Assembly (NCBI GenBank): GCA_965214705.1
Contig: OZ243972.1
Span: 3,904,001 to 3,968,000 of the forward strand
Reading direction: 5' to 3'
Source of the DNA: Alphaproteobacteria bacterium
GTDB lineage: Bacteria; Pseudomonadota; Alphaproteobacteria; UBA828
DNA length: 64,000 nt
Part shown: piece after piece, positions 14,482 to 59,432 of the stretch
How positions within the stretch are numbered: the stretch's first letter is position 1
Layout of the letters: every line of letters begins with the position of its first letter
Position numbers and translations under genes: made by a program
Notes under the pieces: model-generated
What the model was told of the DNA's origin: nothing
Database searches by the model: none
What the model saw: only the letters and a program-made list of their open reading frames with translations

Positions 14482-15322
14482 GGCCTGTTCACACTAATTG
14501 TGCGAATCGTGTTACCATTCTGGGATGGAGATCACGGAAGCTCAATACGCGCGCCTTGCCCCGTACCTTCCGGTGCAACGCGGCAACGTCAGGCTGTCGA
14601 ACCTGCAGGTGCTGAACGCCATCCTCTACGTGGCCGAGCACGGCTGCAAGTGGCGCGGACTGCCGGCCCGCTTCGGCAACTGGCACACCATTTACATGCG
14701 TATGAACCGGTGGTCGAAGAACGGGGTGCTCGACCGGGTATTCGAGCAACTGCAGCGGGAGCAGATCGTGCGCATCAGGCTCGAGGCCGTGTCGCTGGAC
14801 AGCACCATCATCAAGGTCCATCCCGACGGGACGGGGGCGCTAAAAAAAACGGACCCCAGTCGATCGGCAGGTCACGAGGCGGCTGGACCACCAAGCTTCA
14901 TATGGTTGCCTCGGATGCCCGGACGGCCGTGACCTTCTCGCTCTCCCCCGGTCAGGCGCACGTCGCGCCGAAGGCGCGCGTATCCGCGCGACGCGCCGGA
15001 GGGGCGCAAACTGTTGCGCCGCCTCGGCCGCCAGCGCGCCAAGCCAGCGCTGGTGATGGATCGCGCCTACGAGGGCGACGAGACGCGCCAACTGGCGCTC
15101 GACCTCGGCTTCACACCCGTGGTTCCGCCGCTCAAGACCCGGCGTGACCCCTGGCTATACGACCGGGAGATGTACAAGCGGCGCAACGAGATCGAGCGCC
15201 TGTTCAGAAGACTGAAGGGCGTCCGGCGCATCTTCTCCCGCTTCGAGAAACTCGATGCCCTGTTCCTCGGCTTCGTCCACTTCACACTCATCTACGATGC
15301 CCTGCGTTAACGTGACAGGCTC
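14481..15322 (+). mobile_element. IS5-family (IS427-group-like) element inserted at CTAG
   Basis: Imperfect TIRs GGGCCTGTTCACACTAA / TTAACGTGACAGGCTC; CTAG at 14478-14481 and 15322-15325. Confidence 0.85.
14525..15310 (+). pseudogene. IS5-family transposase; two-ORF frameshift type, additionally broken by a 28-bp insertion
   Basis: ORF A has GCKWRGLP..FGNWHTIY.R..RW and LDST; A8 run at 14842-14849; ORF B has GRSRGGWTTKLH, DRAY and YKRRNEIERLF; insertion at 14963-14990. Confidence 0.8.
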
Positions 15323-15325
15323 TAG

Positions 15326-15446
15326 CAGGCTGCTGAAAAACCCTTTGGACCCGACCAATGATTCCCTTCTGTTCTGAATTCGATTCTCATTCGTTCCTGC
15401 GTTTCGTCAGAACATGTTGGAAATATCGGAGTTTTTCAGCAGCCTG
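15326..15446. mobile_element. 121-bp MITE (non-autonomous IS derivative)
   Basis: Perfect TIR CAGGCTGCTGAAAAA / TTTTTCAGCAGCCTG, CTAG on both sides, AT-rich non-coding interior. Confidence 0.85.
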
Positions 15447-15501
15447 CTAGAGCATTTTTCGATCTTATAGAATCTTTAGAATTTTCAATCGCTTGGAAAT
15501 G

Positions 15502-17167
15502 GTAACTGCCCAGGTCGCTTACTGAGGTGATTCCGGTGTTGGGGAGTTCTTGCCCGGTAGGCTCACGCGCACTTGACGGTGGCGATGAGTTGGTCCGATG
15601 GGCTGATCAGGGCTTCGATGATGTTCCAGCCCTGCTTTCTGGCGGTGGTGATCACGCTGCGCAGGATGGCGAAGTTCTCGGCCCCCTTTGCGGATCGGAA
15701 GCCGCCGGAGATCTTCTGGCGCAGCTTCATCATCCGCAGGTCGCGCTCGGCCTCGTTGTTGGTAAACGCCACTTCGGGGTCGGTCAGGAAGCGGAGAACC
15801 GCGCATTTTCGATCGCGCAGGCGCAGGGCGAGGTTGTGGCCGATCCGCCGCTTCTTGCGTCCCCGCTTTCCGGGCTTGGGAGGCGAGAGCGGCGGCTGGC
15901 TCTCGTGGAAGGCCAGCGCCTCGGCAATGATCTCGTCGTATCGGCGCTCGATCAGCGCCACAAGCGTCGCCGGAACGGCGATATCCTTGTCCTGCGCGAT
16001 CCGGGCGGCGCGATTGGCCCGGCGCAGGAGCTGCTGCATGCGTCCGGCCCAGCCTTCCCCTTCGATGTCCACCAGCGCCTGCAACTCCCGCAGGTGGTGG
16101 GCGTTGCACAAGCCGTGCTCCACCCCCTCCAACGTGAAGTACGGCTTCCAGTGATCGTGAACGACGATACCGGAAACACCCAAGAGCAGGTCGCCGCGCT
16201 TGGCGCTGACCCGGAATGCCGCCAGATGCGGCGTGCAGATCACATGGAGCCACTGCGTTTGCCCGCCAATCCGGAACCCGGTCTCGTCGAGGTGCTTCAC
16301 CCGCGCCGTGCCCGCCGCAAGCTCCTGTATGTGGGTGGCAACTCCCCGCAGCCGATCGGCCGCCCTCTCGCTCATCGCCGCCAGTGTCGCAGCCGTCACC
16401 GGCGCGCCGAACAGCTCCGCCATCACCTGCGACAGCCGGTCCTCCGGCAGGAAGTGGGCGTGCTGAAGGTAGACCGCCACGCCTGCAATGCGCGACCCGT
16501 ACTGCACCGGTGCCGACACCCCCTCGGGGAACGCTGCACGGGTCAGCGTGCCGCAATGCCCGCAGCACTTGGCATGCGCCCGGTGCTCGGTCACCTCCAG
16601 CGCACGCGCCTCGGGCAGGTCGAAGACCTGGCGGGCGTGCGACACCCCTGCCGTGGCCGCCGCCGACAGGGACGAACCGCATCCCTCGCAGGCAGCCGGA
16701 ACGTGGTTCTCCACCCGGTCCGGGTGATCCGTGCGGCGCAACGTCTCGCCCTTGTGGCCGGGCTGACCGCCCGGCTTGCGCCCCGATTTGCCCCGCTGGC
16801 TTTGGGTCCGCCGCTTGGCCCTCGGCTTCTTCAACCCATCGCTCGACGGCGGCTTGGCGCTGTTGCGACTGCTCAGTCCGAGACGGCGTTCCAACTCCTC
16901 GATACGCTCGACAAGACGCGTGTTTTGTTCCTCCAGCCGCGCATTCTGCTGCCGAAGCCAGGCGTTCTCCTCCTCCAGGCGAGCGATCTTCTGCTCGGAA
17001 CTTTCGGGCCGTGCCCCCGTTGAAGGGCCGCGCGGCGACTCGGGATTGCTCATGTCGTTGTTGAGTCATTTTCCGAAACTTCCGTCAACCCCCTCGTGTC
17101 AACTCCAAACTGGCCGTGCCTCAACCCCAAGGTTCAAAATGACAAATCAGACAACCTGGGCAGTTAC
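15502..17167 (-). mobile_element. IS66-family element (single-ORF, ISBst12-like)
   Basis: 14-bp TIR GTAACTGCCCAGGT / ACCTGGGCAGTTAC; 8-bp target duplication TGGAAATG at 15494-15501 and 17168-17175. Confidence 0.95.
15563..17053 (-). CDS. IS66 transposase (TnpC-like)
   Basis: Coiled coil, NSAKPPSSD, GGQPGHKG, HLDETG, CNAHHLREL and TNNEAERDLR..KLRQKISG. Confidence 0.95.
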   Translation of the reverse strand: MSNPESPRGPSTGARPESSEQKIARLEEENAWLRQQNARLEEQNTRLVERIEELERRLGLSSRNSAKPPSSDGLKKPRAKRRTQSQRGKSGRKPGGQPGHKGETLRRTDHPDRVENHVPAACEGCGSSLSAAATAGVSHARQVFDLPEARALEVTEHRAHAKCCGHCGTLTRAAFPEGVSAPVQYGSRIAGVAVYLQHAHFLPEDRLSQVMAELFGAPVTAATLAAMSERAADRLRGVATHIQELAAGTARVKHLDETGFRIGGQTQWLHVICTPHLAAFRVSAKRGDLLLGVSGIVVHDHWKPYFTLEGVEHGLCNAHHLRELQALVDIEGEGWAGRMQQLLRRANRAARIAQDKDIAVPATLVALIERRYDEIIAEALAFHESQPPLSPPKPGKRGRKKRRIGHNLALRLRDRKCAVLRFLTDPEVAFTNNEAERDLRMMKLRQKISGGFRSAKGAENFAILRSVITTARKQGWNIIEALISPSDQLIATVKCA

Positions 17168-17384
17168 TGGAAATGTGATTCAAGATGCGGGCTGGTGAAG
17201 GAGGCCGGCCTGCATGACACGACCTCTTTCGAATGATCTGCGCCGCCGGGTGGTGACGGCGGTGGTCGATGGCGGCATGACCCGCCGGGGCGCGGCGAGA
17301 CGCTTCGGCATCGCGCCGTCGACGGCGATCAAGTGGGTCGATGCCTGGCGCCGCACGGGCAGCTATCGCCCCAGGGCGCAAGGA

Positions 17385-18741
17385 GGCATATGCGCTAACT
17401 TGTTTGCGGTTCTTCGATGAAGCGTTCCGCGGTTTGGGTCAGGCGCCGCCGGGACGGTTCGGAGAGGGATTTGGAGATCTGGTTCCATTGGTCGATCACC
17501 TCGGCGAGGGACAAATGGGGTTCGATGGCTCGCACGCCCTGGTTGAGCATGAACCTGAAGTCACGCCAGGCGCTGTGCGGCCCGCCTCCAGGCTGTATCC
17601 CCAGGGGGAAACCGTGCCGGCATGACGGATCAGCTTTTCCACCAGCAGCGCCACCAGGAGTTTGCCGTAGAGCCACGCCTTGGCGCTCTCGTCGTCGTAT
17701 TTGGGCAGATGCCCCAACTGCGCCAGAGACTTGAAGCGCTTGAAGACCAGTTCGACCTGCCAGCGGGTGCGATACCACTCCAGGACCTGCGCCGCGCTGA
17801 AGGCCGCTTCGGGAAAGGTCGTGAACACGATGACGTAGCGCGCGAACTCCAGGGTTCGCGGCCGAACCTGCTTGCCCTTGCGCCCGGCCTCCTTGCGCAG
17901 CTTGCGCTGCGCCAGCCTGATGGCTTCCTGCGTCTTTCTGATCGCGCACACGCGCCCCGGCACCGCGATGCCGTCGCCGACCGCCAGCACGGGCCAGGAT
18001 CGCACGCTGCCGACCCGCTTCAGCGTCGTGACGTGTGCAAGCAGGTCGAACGGCGCGCCGTCGCGCGTTCGAAGCGACAGCGACCCGGTGTTCACGCGCA
18101 CGGTGACGTGACCCCCCGCAGACACCACGTGGTGGAGGCCCGCAGCAGTCGAGTACGCCCGGTCGGCGAGCACAAAGTCGCCCTCGCCGACCGGGAACTG
18201 CGAGAACGCCTCGCCCGTGCCCCGTCCCTCGCTCGCCGTGAGCTTGAAGAAGTCGCACGCCAGCGACGGAAGGCGCACGCTGTAGTGCAGGCGCCACAGC
18301 GCCCCGGTCCGGCCCGGCTCCTTCACCGTCGTCGCGTCGAAGGCCCTGACCTGGAACCCGCCAGCGGCCGACATCGCCATCCCCTGTTCGCGAAACAGCG
18401 CGACGCACAACGCGTGAAGCCAATCCCCCGACTTCCTCAGCCGCTTCAACAAGGCCACGTCGGACAGATCGGCCAGGTTCGCCTTCCTCGCACGCACCAC
18501 GGTCTCGCGCAGCGAGTGTCCGCAGGCCAGATGCAGCAACAGCGTGCGCAGCAGGGCATCGACCGACTTGTCCTTGCGCAGACCCTTCAAGGCCCCGGTC
18601 TCCCGTGCCAACTCCCGCCAGCCCTCGGGCAGAAACGACGACACCACTTCCCACTCCTCGTCCATCCGCCAAGCCTCCCCGCAGCGCGCACCAACCCACA
18701 ATACGGAGTGCCGACATGACAAACAAGTTAGCTCTTATGCC
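17385..18741 (-). mobile_element. IS4-family element
   Basis: 22-bp imperfect TIR GGCATATGCGCTAACTTGTTTG / CAAACAAGTTAGCTCTTATGCC; no target duplication visible. Confidence 0.85.
17496..18665 (-). CDS. IS4-family DDE transposase
   Basis: FDAT, LADRAY and Y..RWQVELVFKRFKS signature. Confidence 0.9.
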   Translation of the reverse strand: MDEEWEVVSSFLPEGWRELARETGALKGLRKDKSVDALLRTLLLHLACGHSLRETVVRARKANLADLSDVALLKRLRKSGDWLHALCVALFREQGMAMSAAGGFQVRAFDATTVKEPGRTGALWRLHYSVRLPSLACDFFKLTASEGRGTGEAFSQFPVGEGDFVLADRAYSTAAGLHHVVSAGGHVTVRVNTGSLSLRTRDGAPFDLLAHVTTLKRVGSVRSWPVLAVGDGIAVPGRVCAIRKTQEAIRLAQRKLRKEAGRKGKQVRPRTLEFARYVIVFTTFPEAAFSAAQVLEWYRTRWQVELVFKRFKSLAQLGHLPKYDDESAKAWLYGKLLVALLVEKLIRHAGTVSPWGYSLEAGRTAPGVTSGSCSTRACEPSNPICPSPR

Positions 18742-18808: not shown

Positions 18809-19977
18809 GGATTCCTCTGCGAAAGGGGGTTTGCGGATTTCGTTGCATGTGATTCGTTGCAGCAACGATGTGGAGGTCGAGTCGATGAGCGGCACGGGTC
18901 AGCTGGGATTTGCGGAAGCGTTCATGTCTGCGGGGCTGGGTACGAACCGGAAGCTGGAACGGCTGGATGGGCTGATCGACTGGTCCCGGCTCGAGCGCCT
19001 GGCTGCGCGGGTGCGCGAAGGACGGCGGGGGCGCCCGCCCTATGCGCCGCTGTCGATGCTGAAGGCGCTCTATCTTCAGGCGCTTTACGACCTCTCGGAC
19101 CCCGGTCTGGAGGAGGCGCTGCTGGACCGGCTCTCGTTTCGTCGCTTCTGCGGCTTTGCGCTGGACGGGGGCACGCCGGACGAGACCACGATCTGCCGCT
19201 TCCGCGCAGATGCGGGCGCTGTCCTGGAGGCGGCGTTCGAGGAGATCAACCGCCAGCTGGATGCCGCCGGTCTGATCCTGCGCAAGGGCACGCTGATGGA
19301 CGCGACCTTGGTGGCCTCGGCCTCGCGGCCGCCGCCTTATGCGGCCGGTGCTGGCGCCAGGAGTGCGCGCGAGCCGGGCGCGGATTGGACGCGCAAGAAG
19401 GGCCGCGCGGTCTTCGGCTACAAGGCGCATCTCGGTGTGGACCAGGGCTCGGGGCTGATCCGTCGCCTGGTTCTGAGTTCAGCCAAGACTTACGAGAGCG
19501 AGGTTGCGGATCGTCTGGTCTGCGGCGACGAGGGGGCGGTCTACGGCGACCGCGCCTACGAGGGCAAGCCGAGACGGGCCAGGCTCAAGGCCGCCGGTAT
19601 CAAGGACCGCATCATGCACCGGCGCAACAAGCACATGGCCTCGCTGCCGCCCTGGCAGCAGCGCCGCAACGATCTCATTGCGAGGCGCCGGGCGCCGGTG
19701 GAAGCGGTCTTTTCGGCGCTGAAGCGCCTCTACGGGCTGAGGCGGGCGAAGAGCCTCACGCTTGAGAGGAACACCGCCCGCCTCTACGCCGCTGCCACCG
19801 CCTGCAACCTGCGCCGCGCCAGCCTGATTGCGGGCTGCTGACCGACCAGTGCGCCCGCAAACCGCCGTTTCAGACACAAGATCGTCCAACGATGGCGACA
19901 CACCCGCCTCCATCAACACCGCCCAGCGCCAAAAGCCTTCCCCAACACCCTGTCGAGCCCCTTTCGCAGAGGAATCC
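18809..19977 (+). mobile_element. IS5-family element
   Basis: Perfect 20-bp TIR GGATTCCTCTGCGAAAGGGG / CCCCTTTCGCAGAGGAATCC. Confidence 0.9.
18885..19841 (+). CDS. IS5-family transposase
   Basis: GRPPY, LSDPGLEE, PDETTICRFR, MDAT, FGYKAH, GDRAY and RAPVEAVF. Confidence 0.95.
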   Translation: MSGTGQLGFAEAFMSAGLGTNRKLERLDGLIDWSRLERLAARVREGRRGRPPYAPLSMLKALYLQALYDLSDPGLEEALLDRLSFRRFCGFALDGGTPDETTICRFRADAGAVLEAAFEEINRQLDAAGLILRKGTLMDATLVASASRPPPYAAGAGARSAREPGADWTRKKGRAVFGYKAHLGVDQGSGLIRRLVLSSAKTYESEVADRLVCGDEGAVYGDRAYEGKPRRARLKAAGIKDRIMHRRNKHMASLPPWQQRRNDLIARRRAPVEAVFSALKRLYGLRRAKSLTLERNTARLYAAATACNLRRASLIAGC

Positions 19978-55265: not shown

Positions 55266-55511
55266 TCAGCGCCACACCGCGCGGACCACGCTCAAGTAGT
55301 TCTCGCCCAGGATACCCCGCACCTCCCGTTCGGCGTATCCGCGCTCCAGCAGGCCTTCGGTCACCTCGGGCAGTTGTTCGGGCTGGAAGAACGCGGTCAG
55401 CGGCTTCTCATAGTCTGCCCAGTATTTTTCCTTGTTTGCCTCGAAGACGCGGGTGAAGCCTTCGACGTCGTAGACGAGGTCAATCCCGAGCCCGACATGC
55501 TCGGGACCCAT
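55266..55511 (-). pseudogene. C-terminal remnant of a membrane dipeptidase (M19)
   Basis: GPEHVGLGID and LLERGY.E.EVRGILGENYL.V; N-terminal part absent. Confidence 0.75.
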
Positions 55512-56111
55512 CCAGTGGGCGGCGTCCGAGGGCGAGAGCGATACGGGTGTTGCTCGCTAGAGCATTTTTCGATCTTAGAGAATCTTTAGAATTTTCAATC
55601 GCTTGGAAATGTGATTCAAGACGCGGGCTGGTGAAGGAGGCCAGCCTGCATGACACGACCTCTTTCGAATGATCTGCGCCGCCGGGTGGTGACGGCGGTG
55701 GTCGATGGCGGCATGTCCCGCCGGGGCGCGGCGAGACGCTTCGGCATCGCGCCGTCGACGGCGATCAAGTGGGTCGATGCCTGGCGCCGCACGGGCAGCT
55801 ATCGGCCGAGGGCGCAGGGCGGCGACAGGCGCTCGCAGCGGATCGAGGCGCGGGCCGAGGTGGTCCTCGCACTGGTGGAAGAGACCCCGGACATGACGCT
55901 GGCGGAGATCACCACCCATCTGGAGGACGAGCACGGGCTGCGGGTCTCCCAGAGCACCGTATGGCGCTTCTTCCACCGCCGGGGCATCACCTTCAAAAAC
56001 AGACATGGCCGGCGTGTAGCGATCCACCCCGGATGATGAAAGTCCGGTGCCTCGGTCGAGGGAATGAACGCTGCCCCTGCGTGGCATAGCGGCATTAGAG
56101 TCACGGTCGGT

Positions 56112-56288
56112 GGAGGCGGCACAATGGCCGTCGTTTTAGTGGTGAGCACTGCTTCCCGATCAAAAACTGGCCCCGGCCGGTCGGCTCCGAGCCCCGGATT
56201 GTTCCCGGCCGCCGAGCCGTGGACGCGCGGCAAACCGCACCGCACCCGAGGCGGGTGTGTGTTCAGTCCGACCGGCCCGTCCGCCTCC
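56112..56288 (+). ncRNA. Candidate bridge RNA
   Basis: Nested stems GGAGGCGG/CCGCCTCC and GGCCGGTCGG/CCGACCGGCC enclosing segments that match the target flanks and donor junction. Confidence 0.7.
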
Positions 56289-56314
56289 GCCTTCCCCAAG
56301 CGAGAGGTGAGATC

Positions 56315-57577
56315 ATGAGAACCGACACACTGCACGTCGTCCATGCTCGTGCCGCCGGCATTGACGTGCACAAGATGCAGATCACCACATCGATCCGCAT
56401 CTGTGCACCCGGCGGCGGCGAGCCGCAGATCGCGACGCGGACCTTCGAGGCTCTGCCCAGCGGCATCGACGAGATGGTGGCATGGATGCTCGCGCGCAAA
56501 GTCGATGCCGCAGTGATGGAGGGCACCGGCATCTACTGGGTGGCACCGTTCGAAGCGCTGGAGGCGGCCGGCATCTCCGTGGTGCTGGTCAACGCCCGGC
56601 AGGTCAAGCAGCTGAAGGGCCGCAAGACCGATGTGGCGGACAGCGTCTGGCTGGCGCGGGTCTGTCAGTTCGGTCTGGCAAGCCCCAGCCACGTGCCGCC
56701 CAAGGCGTTCCGGGAGATGCGCGCACTTACCCGCTACCGGCGCGCCCTCGTCGGTCAGCGCAGCCGGGTGCGCAATCGGGTGCAGAAGGTCCTGGACCGC
56801 AGCGGCGTGCGCGTCGGCGGTGTCCTCTCCGACGTCTTCGGCACGAACGGGAGACGGGTTCTCGACGGCTTGGCTGAGGGGCTCGGACCGGACGCCATCC
56901 TGGCCTCGCTCAGCCACCATGTGGCGCACAAGGTCGAGCGGCTCGGCGACGCCCTCAGCCTCTCCCTCAGCGCTGCGGACCGCCTGATCCTGTGCGATCT
57001 GCTTCGCGAGCACGATGCGCTGGAGGAGCGCATCCAGGGGTTCGACCGGGCCATCGACGATGGCTTCGTGCCCTGGGAGGACCGCATCCTGCTTCTCCAG
57101 ACCATCCCCGGGATCGACCGGGCCTCGGCCTGCGCCATCCTCGCCGAGATCGGCCCCGACCTCGACGCCTTCGGCTCCACTGATCGGCTTGCCGCATGGG
57201 CCGGTCTCTGTCCCGGCAACAGCCAAAGCGCCGGAAAGCGCCGTGCCGCCCGCACACGCATGGGCAGCAAGACCCTGCGCGCCGTGCTCGTCGAATGCGC
57301 TCATGGCGCGGCGCGAACCCATGGCTGCCAGTTCCGCGGCTACCACAAGGCTCTCATGATCCGACGCGGTTACAAGCGGGCCATCGTCGCCACCGCGCAC
57401 AAGATGCTGCGGGTCCTCTACGTCGTGTTGCGCGACGCCAAGCCTTACTACGATCCGGAAGCCGACTACGAAGCCCTCATGGTCAGGCGAAATGCCCCGC
57501 GCTGGATCCGCATGCTCCGCCGGCACGGCTTGCTCGAGCCCGGTCGTATCCCAACTGCCATGGCCGCGACCGCCTGA
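56315..57577 (+). CDS. IS110 DEDD recombinase
   Basis: GIDVHK, MEGTGIYW, RKTDVADS, TIPGI and WAGLCPGNSQSAGK; GAGG RBS. Confidence 0.95.
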   Translation: MRTDTLHVVHARAAGIDVHKMQITTSIRICAPGGGEPQIATRTFEALPSGIDEMVAWMLARKVDAAVMEGTGIYWVAPFEALEAAGISVVLVNARQVKQLKGRKTDVADSVWLARVCQFGLASPSHVPPKAFREMRALTRYRRALVGQRSRVRNRVQKVLDRSGVRVGGVLSDVFGTNGRRVLDGLAEGLGPDAILASLSHHVAHKVERLGDALSLSLSAADRLILCDLLREHDALEERIQGFDRAIDDGFVPWEDRILLLQTIPGIDRASACAILAEIGPDLDAFGSTDRLAAWAGLCPGNSQSAGKRRAARTRMGSKTLRAVLVECAHGAARTHGCQFRGYHKALMIRRGYKRAIVATAHKMLRVLYVVLRDAKPYYDPEADYEALMVRRNAPRWIRMLRRHGLLEPGRIPTAMAATA

Positions 57578-58352
57578 AGCATTACCTGGTCGGAGCACGG
57601 TCGGCACCGGGCCACAATCCAGGGCAGCCCGAAGTCCGACCGCGTCTCCAAGCACCGCGAGCGCGGCCTCACGCCGACAACGCGACGCCTCGTCGTAATT
57701 CCCCTACTCGTGCCCGTCCCGAAGAAACTTTCACGGCAAAACGGCGCACGCCAGCGAGCAGCAACGCGCTGACGTGCTCAGGCGCAGGCGCGCCTGGGTC
57801 GAAGCCCAGCCCGGGCTCGACCCTGAGAAGCTGGTCTTCGTGGATGAGACCGGTGCTTCCACCAAAATGGCGCGGCGCTCAGGCCGAGCTTTGCGCGGAC
57901 ACCGCTGCCGCGCTCCGGTGCCTCATGGCCATTGGAAGACCACGACCTTCGTCGGCGCGCTGAGGCTGAGCGGAATGACCGCGCCCATGGTGCTCGACGG
58001 CGCCATGCACGGCGTCGCCTTCCTCGCCTACGTAGACAAGGTGCTGGTGCCGACACTTAAACCCGGCGATATCGTGGTGATGGACAACCTTGCCTGCCAC
58101 CGCAGTGCCGCCGCCCGCGAGGCTATCCAAAGGGCCGGGGCCGAGCTCCGCTTCCTGCCGCCCTACAGCCCCGACTTCAACCCGATCGAGATGGCCTTCT
58201 CCAAGCTCAAGGCCTCCCTCAAGCGCCGCGCAGCCCGCACCCTTCCAGAACTCTGGGACGCCATCGGCGAAGCCACAGACAACTTCACACCCGCCGAGTG
58301 CCAAAACTACTTCGCTGCTGCAGGATATGACCACGTATGATCGGATAGTGCT

Positions 58353-59432
58353 CTAGTTGTGGTTGGCGTGAGCACCATTGTTGGGGGCGGGGGCAGGGGC
58401 CTCCGCGCTGGGAGGCCATGTGTCGCTGAGTCTATAGCCCTCCGGCCATGGATCGCGCGGGTCGAGGTGGAGTTAGGTCGTACCGGTCAGCCAGGCACGA
58501 CCCGAGATCGACGGCAGGATCGCCGGGCGTCCGTCCAAGGTGGTTTCCCCCTCGATGCGGCAGTCGAAGACGGAATCGATGATCGACACTCCGCGGAAGC
58601 GGTCGCCGAGCCCGAGTTCGCCCCGCGCGTGCAGCACCGCCATGCGTGCCGAGCAGCCGGTACCGGTCGGACTGCGGTCGATCTTGCCCGGCCGGATTAC
58701 CACCGCGTTGCGGCCCGTCGGAACGCCGTCGATGCTCTGAAGCGGCGCCGCGATCTGGCAGAACGAGATATGCCGCCAATCGGGGTTTTCGGGATGGACG
58801 AAGCCCAACTGCTCGTTGGCGGCACGGGTGATCCGAATCCCCGTCTCGACGATGTCCCGCGCTTCGTCAGGGCTGAGTGCGAAGCCGAGCGCCTCCGAAT
58901 CCACCAGCACGAAGCTGTCGCCGCCATAAGCGGTGTCCACAGTGAGCGTTCCGAGCCCTTCCACCTCGAGCGCGGCCCCAAGCCGCGCCGCGAAGGAAGC
59001 CACGTTGTGCACGCGGACGGAGTCGACCCGCCCCTCGTTGCAGGCGGCATGCACCCGGATGAGGCCGCCAGGTGCTTCCAGAGTCATCACCGTCTCGGGT
59101 TCGGTCATCGGCAAGATGCCTGTTTCCAGTAACACCGTGGCGACGCAGAGGCTATTCGATCCCGACATCGGCGGCGTGTCCTCGGGCTCCATGATGATGA
59201 AGCCCATGTCGGCGCGAGGATCCTTCGGCGGCACCAGCAGGTTGACATGTCGGAACACGCCGCCGCGTGGCTCGTTCAACACGAAGCGGCGGAGCGACTG
59301 GTCGCGGGCGATGAAGCGTGACTGCTCCCAGAGCGTGTCACCTGGCGGCGGGGCGACGCCGCCGATGATGACATCGCCCACCTCGCCTTCCGCATGGCAG
59401 CCGACGATTTGCACGAGGCGTTGCGATCGCAT
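58353..59432 (-). pseudogene. Proline racemase family protein (Ser/Thr type) with premature TAA at 58473-58475
   Basis: HAEGE, PMSGSN and DRSPTGT; the frame continues past the TAA as LHLDPRDPWPEGYRLSDTW to a TAG at the IS630 insertion site. Confidence 0.85.

Follow-up and report, generated by a model that had tools for sequence, protein, structure and literature searches.

How does one mobile element come to lie, to the base, in the joint between the two halves of another element's gene? This question is raised by a stretch of 64,000 nucleotides from an alphaproteobacterium of the UBA828 lineage (assembly GCA_965214705.1, contig OZ243972.1, positions 3,904,001 to 3,968,000; in the following, the window). 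Here an insertion sequence (IS) of the IS110 family, which we call IS110-a, breaks the transposase gene of an IS of the IS630 family at a run of A residues. Our analysis indicates that IS110-a is probably a bridge-RNA-type element that was inserted into this A-run by RNA-guided site-specific recombination. The evidence comprises the anatomy of the junctions, the domains and catalytic residues of the recombinase, the identity of leader segments with the flanks, their covariation across the family, and the recurrence of the junction.

The IS110 insertion in the IS630 transposase gene

The host IS630 element spans positions 55560..58353 of the window and comprises 1,053 bp when the insert is subtracted; host, insert and all of their features described below lie on the + strand. 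It is bordered on both sides by TA (55558-55559 and 58354-58355), the target duplication, and its ends form an inverted repeat that agrees at 12 of the 15 outermost bases, as read by eye from the sequence. The first open reading frame (ORF A, 55650..55998), ending with ...ITFKK within the A-run, encodes the amino-terminal half of the transposase (Pfam domains HTH_32, HTH_23 and HTH_Tnp_Tc3_2, 55650-55997). The catalytic half (DDE_3, 57738-58337, E 6.3e-33) is encoded by ORF B (57738..58340), which resumes with K T A H A S E Q. Both halves are in window frame 0, and the upstream frame enters the insert for 36 nt before it meets a stop codon.

Between the two halves lies the insert of ca. 1.74 kb. 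A comparison of its copies delimits IS110-a as ACAGACATGG...CTTTCACGGC, 55999..57737, with the left junction TTCAAAAA/CAGAC and the right junction CACGGC/AAAACGGCGCAC. On the left side the sequence reads GGC ATC ACC TTC AAAAA, with the five A residues at 55995..55999, and continues with CAGACATGG; on the right side the insert ends with CTTTCACGGC at 57737, followed by four A residues (57738..57741) within CGGCGCAC (AAAA CGG CGC AC). The insertion is thus located exactly within the A-run that links the two IS630 halves, and its position in the initial annotation, correct to the base, is borne out by the junction sequence, the Pfam halves and uninterrupted relatives. It splits the transposase gene and thereby inactivates it.

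To characterize the joint we inspected uninterrupted IS630 relatives from genomes of the genus and the class; 35 loci were examined, of which 31 were readable by the pattern used. The run had eight A residues (A8) in 16 of these 31, A7 in 10 and A6 in three (one followed by T), and was interrupted in the remaining two (AATAAAA and AACAAAAA). Alleles with A8 have the DDE frame at +1 relative to the HTH frame, so that a shift is needed; A7 alleles read through in a single continuous frame, F-K-K-T-A-H-A. Metagenome contigs from three runs likewise contain uninterrupted joints, in which position 57738 follows either 55997 (A7; X6 and X8) or 55998 (A8; X6, X8 and X9). Frameshifting is used in the IS630 family, and transcriptional realignment has been named for an IS630 of Roseiflexus in the review of Atkins et al. 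2016 (PMC5009743). As in that type, the HTH and DDE halves meet at an A-run, and A8 predominates in our relatives; in contrast to it, the in-frame A7 is common here (10/31). On this comparison the A-run is indeed the place where the ORFs join, and it is likely to serve for slippage. Far from being fixed, the run is hypervariable. The initial annotation had supposed a motif that other IS elements cannot easily mutate, and this idea has to be abandoned in view of lengths from A6 to A8 and interrupted variants.

The recombinase gene of IS110-a (56315..57577, 420 aa) was assigned through Pfam and an alignment with the IS621 recombinase. The domains DEDD_Tnp_IS110 (PF01548, 1.7e-24) and Transposase_20 (PF02371, 1.2e-19) were detected within 56315-57574, and the protein aligns with the IS621 recombinase structure 8wt6 (E 2.7e-16). 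Residues D17, E69, D106, D109 and S305 stand opposite D13, E62, D104, D107 and S243 of the 8wt6 chain, whose numbering equals the published IS621 residues at a constant offset of +2; the published catalytic residues are D11, E60, D102, D105 and S241 (Hiraizumi et al. 2024, PMC11208158). A scan of genome contigs yielded only protein-level relatives, with up to 80% identity.

A structured leader with candidate guides

Upstream of the recombinase gene IS110-a has a leader of 315 nt, the conservation of which exceeds that of the gene in some relatives. We aligned it with IS110-b (72% identical, same genus) and with relatives from other phyla that were retrieved by a protein search; 16 aligned elements entered the helix and covariation statistics. 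According to the alignment and the predicted fold (z = -3.63), positions 56109..56291 would fold into a bridge-RNA-like structured RNA, which is closed by a stem between GGUGGAGGCGG (56109-56119) and CCGCCUCCGCC (56281-56291). In the consensus fold this outer helix is followed by a short helix that closes an internal loop containing a hairpin; a further hairpin lies downstream of a conserved GCAAA. Across the family the outer helix is 75.7% paired, with eight pairs changed on both sides, and the loop-closing helix 92.3%, with two such pairs. The corresponding values are 78.7% and one pair for the hairpin inside the loop, and 89.1% and five compensated pairs for the hairpin after the donor guide. 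The covariation score of the leader amounts to 0.178 as compared with 0.121 in shuffles; none of 500 shuffles reached it, and all slid controls scored lower. Helices 5 and 6 of the single-sequence fold lack family support (50-56% paired). In the same fold the strands GUUUU and AAAAC of the target guides (56131-56167) pair with each other, being complementary since the target is a homopolymer. We rejected this pairing as a conserved helix, as only 55% of the cells are paired across the family. As a separate observation, positions 56115-56141 of the leader form a terminator-like hairpin followed by GTTTTAG, a mere consensus match that overlaps the right-target-guide candidate.

Three segments of the leader correspond to guides as defined for IS621 in Durrant et al. 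2024 (PMC11208160), namely a left target guide, a candidate right target guide and a left donor guide. The left target guide, AUCAAAAAC (56159..56167), forms the 3' strand of the internal loop and repeats the left flank, (A/T)TCAAAAA followed by C. In the window copy this flank is CCTTCAAAAA-C, and two further copies of this genome, B and C, have CCATCAAAAA-C. Guide and flank agree at 8/8 positions for ATCAAAAA in copy B and at 7/8 in the window copy, which has TTC. Across the family (11 elements, 20 sites), cognate pairs of left guide and flank match on average at 3.39 of 6 variable positions and non-cognate pairs at 1.7 of 6, a difference that was not reached in any of 20,000 label permutations. 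The right-target-guide candidate, UCGUUUUAG (56131..56139), is the 5' strand of the same loop, and its CGUUUU complements AAAACG of the right junction. The mean contiguous complement between right guide and right flank across the elements is 4.14, a value reached by 30 of 20,000 permutations; matches comprise AAAACG in IS110-a, AACACG in element L069 and AATAAAC in L072. This signal is weaker than that of the left guide, the strand being U-rich in most members. As another candidate for the right target guide, GAUUGUU (~56198-56204) was rejected, for it lies within an invariant conserved helix (UGU/ACG, CCCG/CGGG).

The third segment, GCGCGGCAAACCG (56225..56237), contains CGGCAAA, which equals the right end CACGGC plus AAA, and may thereby recognize the element's own joined ends. 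This left donor guide agrees with the right end in 11 of the 11 element rows in which a right end was found, over four variants in the family including IS110-b (CAGC, CGGC, UGGC and CAAC). IS110-b offers a parallel for the target guide as well: its guide strand AUGACAAAAC contains GACAAAA, and its eight insertion sites in two genomes read (G/A/C)ACAAAA-C, two of these sites forming a tandem in genome G012. The presence of the flanking sequence in the element's own leader makes a chance location unlikely. The idea of a guide programmed to the site thus survives in so far as the leader carries identity to the left flank and complementarity to the right flank, both of which covary, without the notion of an immutable motif. 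We infer that the leader is expressed and that it is bridge-RNA-like in function, albeit with a different layout.

The similarities to IS621, as far as described in Durrant et al. 2024 (PMC11208160) and Hiraizumi et al. 2024 (PMC11208158), are manifold. Both recombinases have a DEDD RuvC-like and a Tnp domain with five catalytic residues that align, and both elements have a structured non-coding RNA in the left end, known from sequence in the case of IS110-a. In both, one RNA segment repeats the left target with the core, a second is complementary to the core with the right target, and a third repeats the left donor with the core; a dinucleotide core is present at both junctions. On the other hand, the core is AA (within AAA) here and CT in IS621, one long-range helix encloses the whole RNA of IS110-a, and the protein similarity is remote (E 2.7e-16). 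Moreover, the left target guide is 5' and the right target guide 3' in IS621, whereas the right-guide candidate of IS110-a precedes the left guide.

The crossover would take place at the AA core. As conservative recombination keeps length, the A residues at the two junctions of an insert should equal those of the target plus those of the joined element ends, so that empty homologues of occupied sites reveal the donor contribution. Copy C has 5 + 5 A residues at its junctions, and its empty counterpart, ATC AAGAAAA TACGG, has a 7-nt stretch (two of two homologues, 95-96%), which leaves three for the donor. The same donor number resulted for IS110-b copy r1 (4 + 3 occupied; GACAC GAAA GACCG, 4 nt, in a 98% paralogue) and for copy r2 (4 + 2; GAC GAA GAAGG, 3 nt, in four of four homologues, 76%). 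It was also obtained for copy L027 of G012 (4 + 3; AAC AAAT GGCGG, 4 nt, in homologues of 80%) and for the outer junctions of the G012 tandem pair (4 + 3; AAAA in the orthologue of the present genome, G000). In the family, a non-A base may follow after only two A residues at right junctions, and at left junctions C is always preceded by at least three. The junction counts fit element ends of the form ...GC/AA/AC..., with the AA core in between. The left A-run of the window copy would then consist of target AA (55995-55996), core AA (55997-55998) and the first base of IS110-a (55999), and the right A-run of core AA (57738-57739) and target AA (57740-57741). The joined ends are most likely CACGGC-AAA-CAGAC. 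With 5 + 4 = 9 A residues in the window and three from the donor, the target would therefore be TTC AAAAAA CGG, with the DDE half in frame -1, and A6 is the most likely length of the run in the IS630 allele hit. The initial annotation had put the original run at about A7-A9 and had considered its length not fixable from the sequence; the empty-site counts now point to A6 instead.

Two other registers were rejected. A donor junction with two A residues (target A7) predicts empty sites that are one base too long at four sites; it also predicts an A9 allele for the metagenome contig X6, and A9 was never seen. A donor junction with four (target A5), an idea that came from the G012 tandem junction and from a guide reading AAAAAC, fails by the same length counts, and no uninterrupted A5 occurs among the 31 relatives. 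With three donor residues, the six A residues at the right junction of X6 imply an A8 target, the commonest allele.

Copies, target sites and recurrence

Four copies of IS110-a are present in the genome. Apart from the window copy (A, 55999..57737), copy B lies 30 kb away in a 5'-truncated IS630, copy C in a non-IS gene without Pfam domains at the site ATCAAAAA, and copy D (G000:C3:1700196-1700895), of which only the last 700 bp remain, on another replicon in a third IS630. Unrelated sequence truncates copy D at its internal position 1039. Copy B agrees with A at 1,738 of 1,738 bp and copy D throughout its 700 bp, and copy C shows a single mismatch. The flanks are shared as well: the right flank of A, B and D is identical for 277 bp, and the left flank of A and B spans 88 bp with one difference, which adds up to a single difference in a block of 2,103 bp (element of 1,738 bp, 277 bp on its right and 88 bp on its left). 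Outside this block the IS630 copies diverge by 6-9%. Because relatives differ from copy A by 17-33 bases (6-12%) over the same 273-bp flank stretch, this stretch is not conserved as such. In view of the shared block we did not accept three independent hits of IS630 in this genome. The three IS630::IS110 copies probably go back, at least in part, to one insertion that was then spread by homologous recombination or duplication, although three independent insertions into already homogenised IS630 copies are possible. The only difference between A and B, T at window position 55992 and A at G000:C1:3989682, falls into the footprint of the left target guide. The A of copy B matches the guide, and every TTC-type relative has T. 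Its origin may be an insertion of its own in a rare allele, or a change that came with recombination. In this subfamily the site is retained by three IS630 copies of the genome, all of them interrupted, and a tblastn search found no intact copy; relatives without IS110-a retain several uninterrupted copies each.

Comparison of occupied sites with their empty homologues gives a picture of target choice. In six of six comparisons the empty homologue departs from the occupied site at bases covered by the guide, and it is the occupied version that fits the guide. Given as empty versus occupied, these differences are AAG/AAA for copy C, ACG/ACA for r1, GAA/AAA for r2 and AGC/AAC for the tandem site; L027 differs at two positions, and copy B has ATC as opposed to TTC in all relatives. 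We read this pattern as ascertainment, in that mismatched paralogues stay empty, which would in itself be evidence for guide-dependent choice. The pairs suggest that one mismatch near the core may suffice to spare a paralogue, which bears on the specificity rules of the enzyme. Counting the A6 target proposed above, the guide strands match the site of copy B over 11 contiguous bases (ATCAAAAAACG). The genome (7.92 Mb, 66.8% GC) contains 113 TCAAAAA sites on both strands. Among the ten unoccupied [AT]TCAAAAAA sites listed, the full motif, with CG next, is present only at C1:174699. If the IS630 sites had A6 before insertion, they represent three of four full-motif sites. On the proposed mechanism the guide has no better natural match in the genome than the IS630 A-run, which is a recurrent target of the IS110-a lineage.

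A similar unoccupied motif had initially been noted in an IS5 element of the window. The site TAAAAAAAACGG (T A8 CGG, 14841-14852) is indeed present and empty in both genomic copies. The element (14498-15310) is IS5/IS427-like by eye, and two overlapping frames meet at its A8 (14842-14849), a classical -1 slippery run (CTA AAA AAA ACG / GCT AAA AAA AAC). The likeness is partial, since this site matches the right half of the guide only.

Beyond this genome, no other full copy of IS110-a was found in 61 relatives or elsewhere in 49 genomes of the order, a megablast search of a plasmid collection with the whole composite gave no match, and neither did an exact 26-nt left-end pattern in metagenome contigs. 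In another species, locus L006 (G002:C2, ~19219-19580) is a decayed deletion relic of an IS110-a-like element. Here 112 nt of leader (90% identical) are fused to ~22 nt of right end, which is joined at the same A-run to the DDE half of an IS630 of a different subtype (CGCGGC-AAAA-CCGCGCAC). The metagenome contig X6 carries the element with four differences over ~1.6 kb and an IS630 allele that differs at 57768, and has the same IS110/IS630 junction with two more A residues. X9 has the window junction. X2, in which the right junction of copy C is also present, shows no differences in the pieces listed; we take it to come from the same strain or one very close to it, and do not count it as further evidence. 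On the basis of the relic and X6 the association of the IS110-a lineage with the IS630 A-run is recurrent.

Guided targeting, specialisation or survival in selfish DNA

The junctions might also be explained by survivorship rather than targeting. A short A-rich core may be all that is needed, which would be rare at 66.8% GC; harmless insertions in selfish DNA would persist and recombination would spread them. Several findings are in line with this scenario, among them the flanks shared by A, B and D (277 bp right, 88 bp left, one difference) where relatives diverge by 6-12%. Two IS630 copies harbour a different multi-copy IS (window 15502-17153 and C3:100715), and IS110-b resides in genes of mobile DNA at G000:C1:363396-365172, 425370-427146 and L027. 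Its hosts are a multi-copy phage-type integrase gene, an IS630-family transposase gene of another subtype, in which it lies antisense between the HTH and DDE parts, and an HTH_Tnp_1 gene belonging to an element of ~50 copies. The flanking ORFs beside 10 distant family members (one each) contain no transposase domain, and near-cognate sites stand empty. Yet the match of 11 contiguous bases in copy B, with the inferred A6 counted, far exceeds a short core, and the IS630 sites would make up three of four full-motif sites if they had A6 before insertion. Furthermore, the junction recurs in G002 and X6 with different IS630 alleles, and the unoccupied homologues carry guide mismatches in all six comparisons. 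We therefore regard survivorship without targeting as an improbable account of the site itself, although it is clear that recombinational spread and the tolerance of selfish DNA for insertions both play a part.

A further-reaching scenario holds that the guide evolved to home on the slippage run because IS630 needs it. For IS110-a the run would be a multi-copy, travelling safe site, carriage by the IS630 ends in trans would be an additional benefit, and silencing of the host IS a side effect. It would agree with the occurrence of the junction in two species and one metagenome, with the interruption of all three site-keeping IS630 copies where relatives without the element keep several uninterrupted ones, and with a composite that retains both IS630 ends and the TA duplication. 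The frameshifting and transcriptional realignment reported for IS630 (PMC5009743) and the IS110-family elements on record at the ends of other mobile elements (IS1383, IS4321/IS5075) are also compatible with it. On the other hand, a run that varies from A6 to A8 and has interrupted variants allows easy escape, one of the four copies lies outside any IS, and the full element occurs in only one of the 49 genomes searched in the order. Such adaptive specialisation is conceivable, but we would rather not assume it. Family-wide homing on ISs was rejected, as no transposase domain is present in the ORFs examined, one beside each of the 10 distant members. The proposal of an IS that targets and inactivates other ISs is hence partly supported as an effect, by the recurrent IS630 junction, the three broken site-keeping copies and the location of IS110-b in genes of mobile DNA, and unproven as an adaptation, considering the shared block, copy C and the distant members without transposase neighbours. 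Mapping of the copies for a preference for IS flanks, as initially suggested, gave three of four copies in IS630 and the fourth in a non-IS gene with the guide-matching ATCAAAAA.

RNA-guided insertion of IS110-a into the A-run remains the reading that we prefer, and a number of observations speak against it. In the strand after the P5 hairpin the alignment yielded no convincing contiguous complement for a right donor guide; that of IS621 pairs discontiguously, as described in PMC11208160. The right-guide candidate lies 5' of the left guide on the opposite side of a hairpin, the reverse of IS621, and because of this opposite order of the target strands it is covariation alone that assigns the loop. 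No Rfam 15 family was found for the leader (55400-58500, E up to 1), the only hit being a chance ctRNA match, and a scan of 55500-57800 detected no sigma-70-like promoter. The A6 allele is rare among relatives (3/31), and within this genome the number of safely independent events may be only two. Near-cognate sites are empty at C1:174699 (TTCAAAAAACG), C1:3333690(-) (ACCATCAAAAAAC) and C1:3568261 (GATCAAAAACGG), which is expected for a rarely moving element. Finally, the internal junction of the G012 tandem, CACGGC-AAAA-CAGTC, has four A residues and not the expected three. This junction is explicable only if the G012 site originally had five A residues; the extra A may stem from re-insertion into a target-like sequence regenerated at the right end. 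The tandem itself (L016/L022, G012:C5, ~476717-479911) is a head-to-tail arrangement of two IS110-b copies.

Preferred sites inside other transposable elements have precedents among IS110/IS1111-family members. To judge from the titles cited in PMC11208160, IS1383 targets inverted repeats of IS1384, and IS4321/IS5075 target those at the ends of Tn21-family transposons. Like IS110-a they ride on and disrupt their host element; the difference is that their targets are terminal inverted repeats, whereas IS110-a uses an internal coding A-run. ISPpu9 and ISPpu10 of Pseudomonas putida, also IS110-family elements, are described as inserted in REP or conserved intergenic repeats. As with IS110-a, the RNA of the element guides them to a sequence repeated in many copies, but their targets are extragenic host repeats and not the gene of another IS. 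A guide tuned to a multi-copy mobile target is, accordingly, a known habit of the IS110 family. In a literature search, which did not cover the bridge-RNA supplements that list natural targets, no paper was found that describes an IS110/IS630 pairing. The mechanism, RNA-guided IS110 recombination, is known; new for the family is the target, and the layout of the RNA is not that of IS621. Tentatively, IS110-a could represent a bridge-RNA IS lineage that has specialised on the IS630 slippage run, a parasite of a parasite, with a target-strand order opposite to IS621. Single-base differences beside the core would then decide which copies are hit and shape the surviving IS630 alleles.

At this locus nature offers a direct comparison of a bridge-type guide with its target, which is here the functional joint within the gene of another transposase. 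A bridge-RNA-like layout with an outer closing helix, swapped target strands and an AA core is of interest for the engineering of these systems. With regard to genome biology, one IS family appears to silence every site-keeping copy of another IS subfamily in one genome.

A second IS630 5' fragment is present in the window (15446-17396). Its two parts, 15446-15501 and 17168-17396, are split by the nested multi-copy IS mentioned above, which gives a match of 1.65 kb (15502-17153) with at least eight copies in the genome at 97-100% identity. The same IS is found at C3:100715 directly after TTCAAAAAAAG of a distant IS630 relative.

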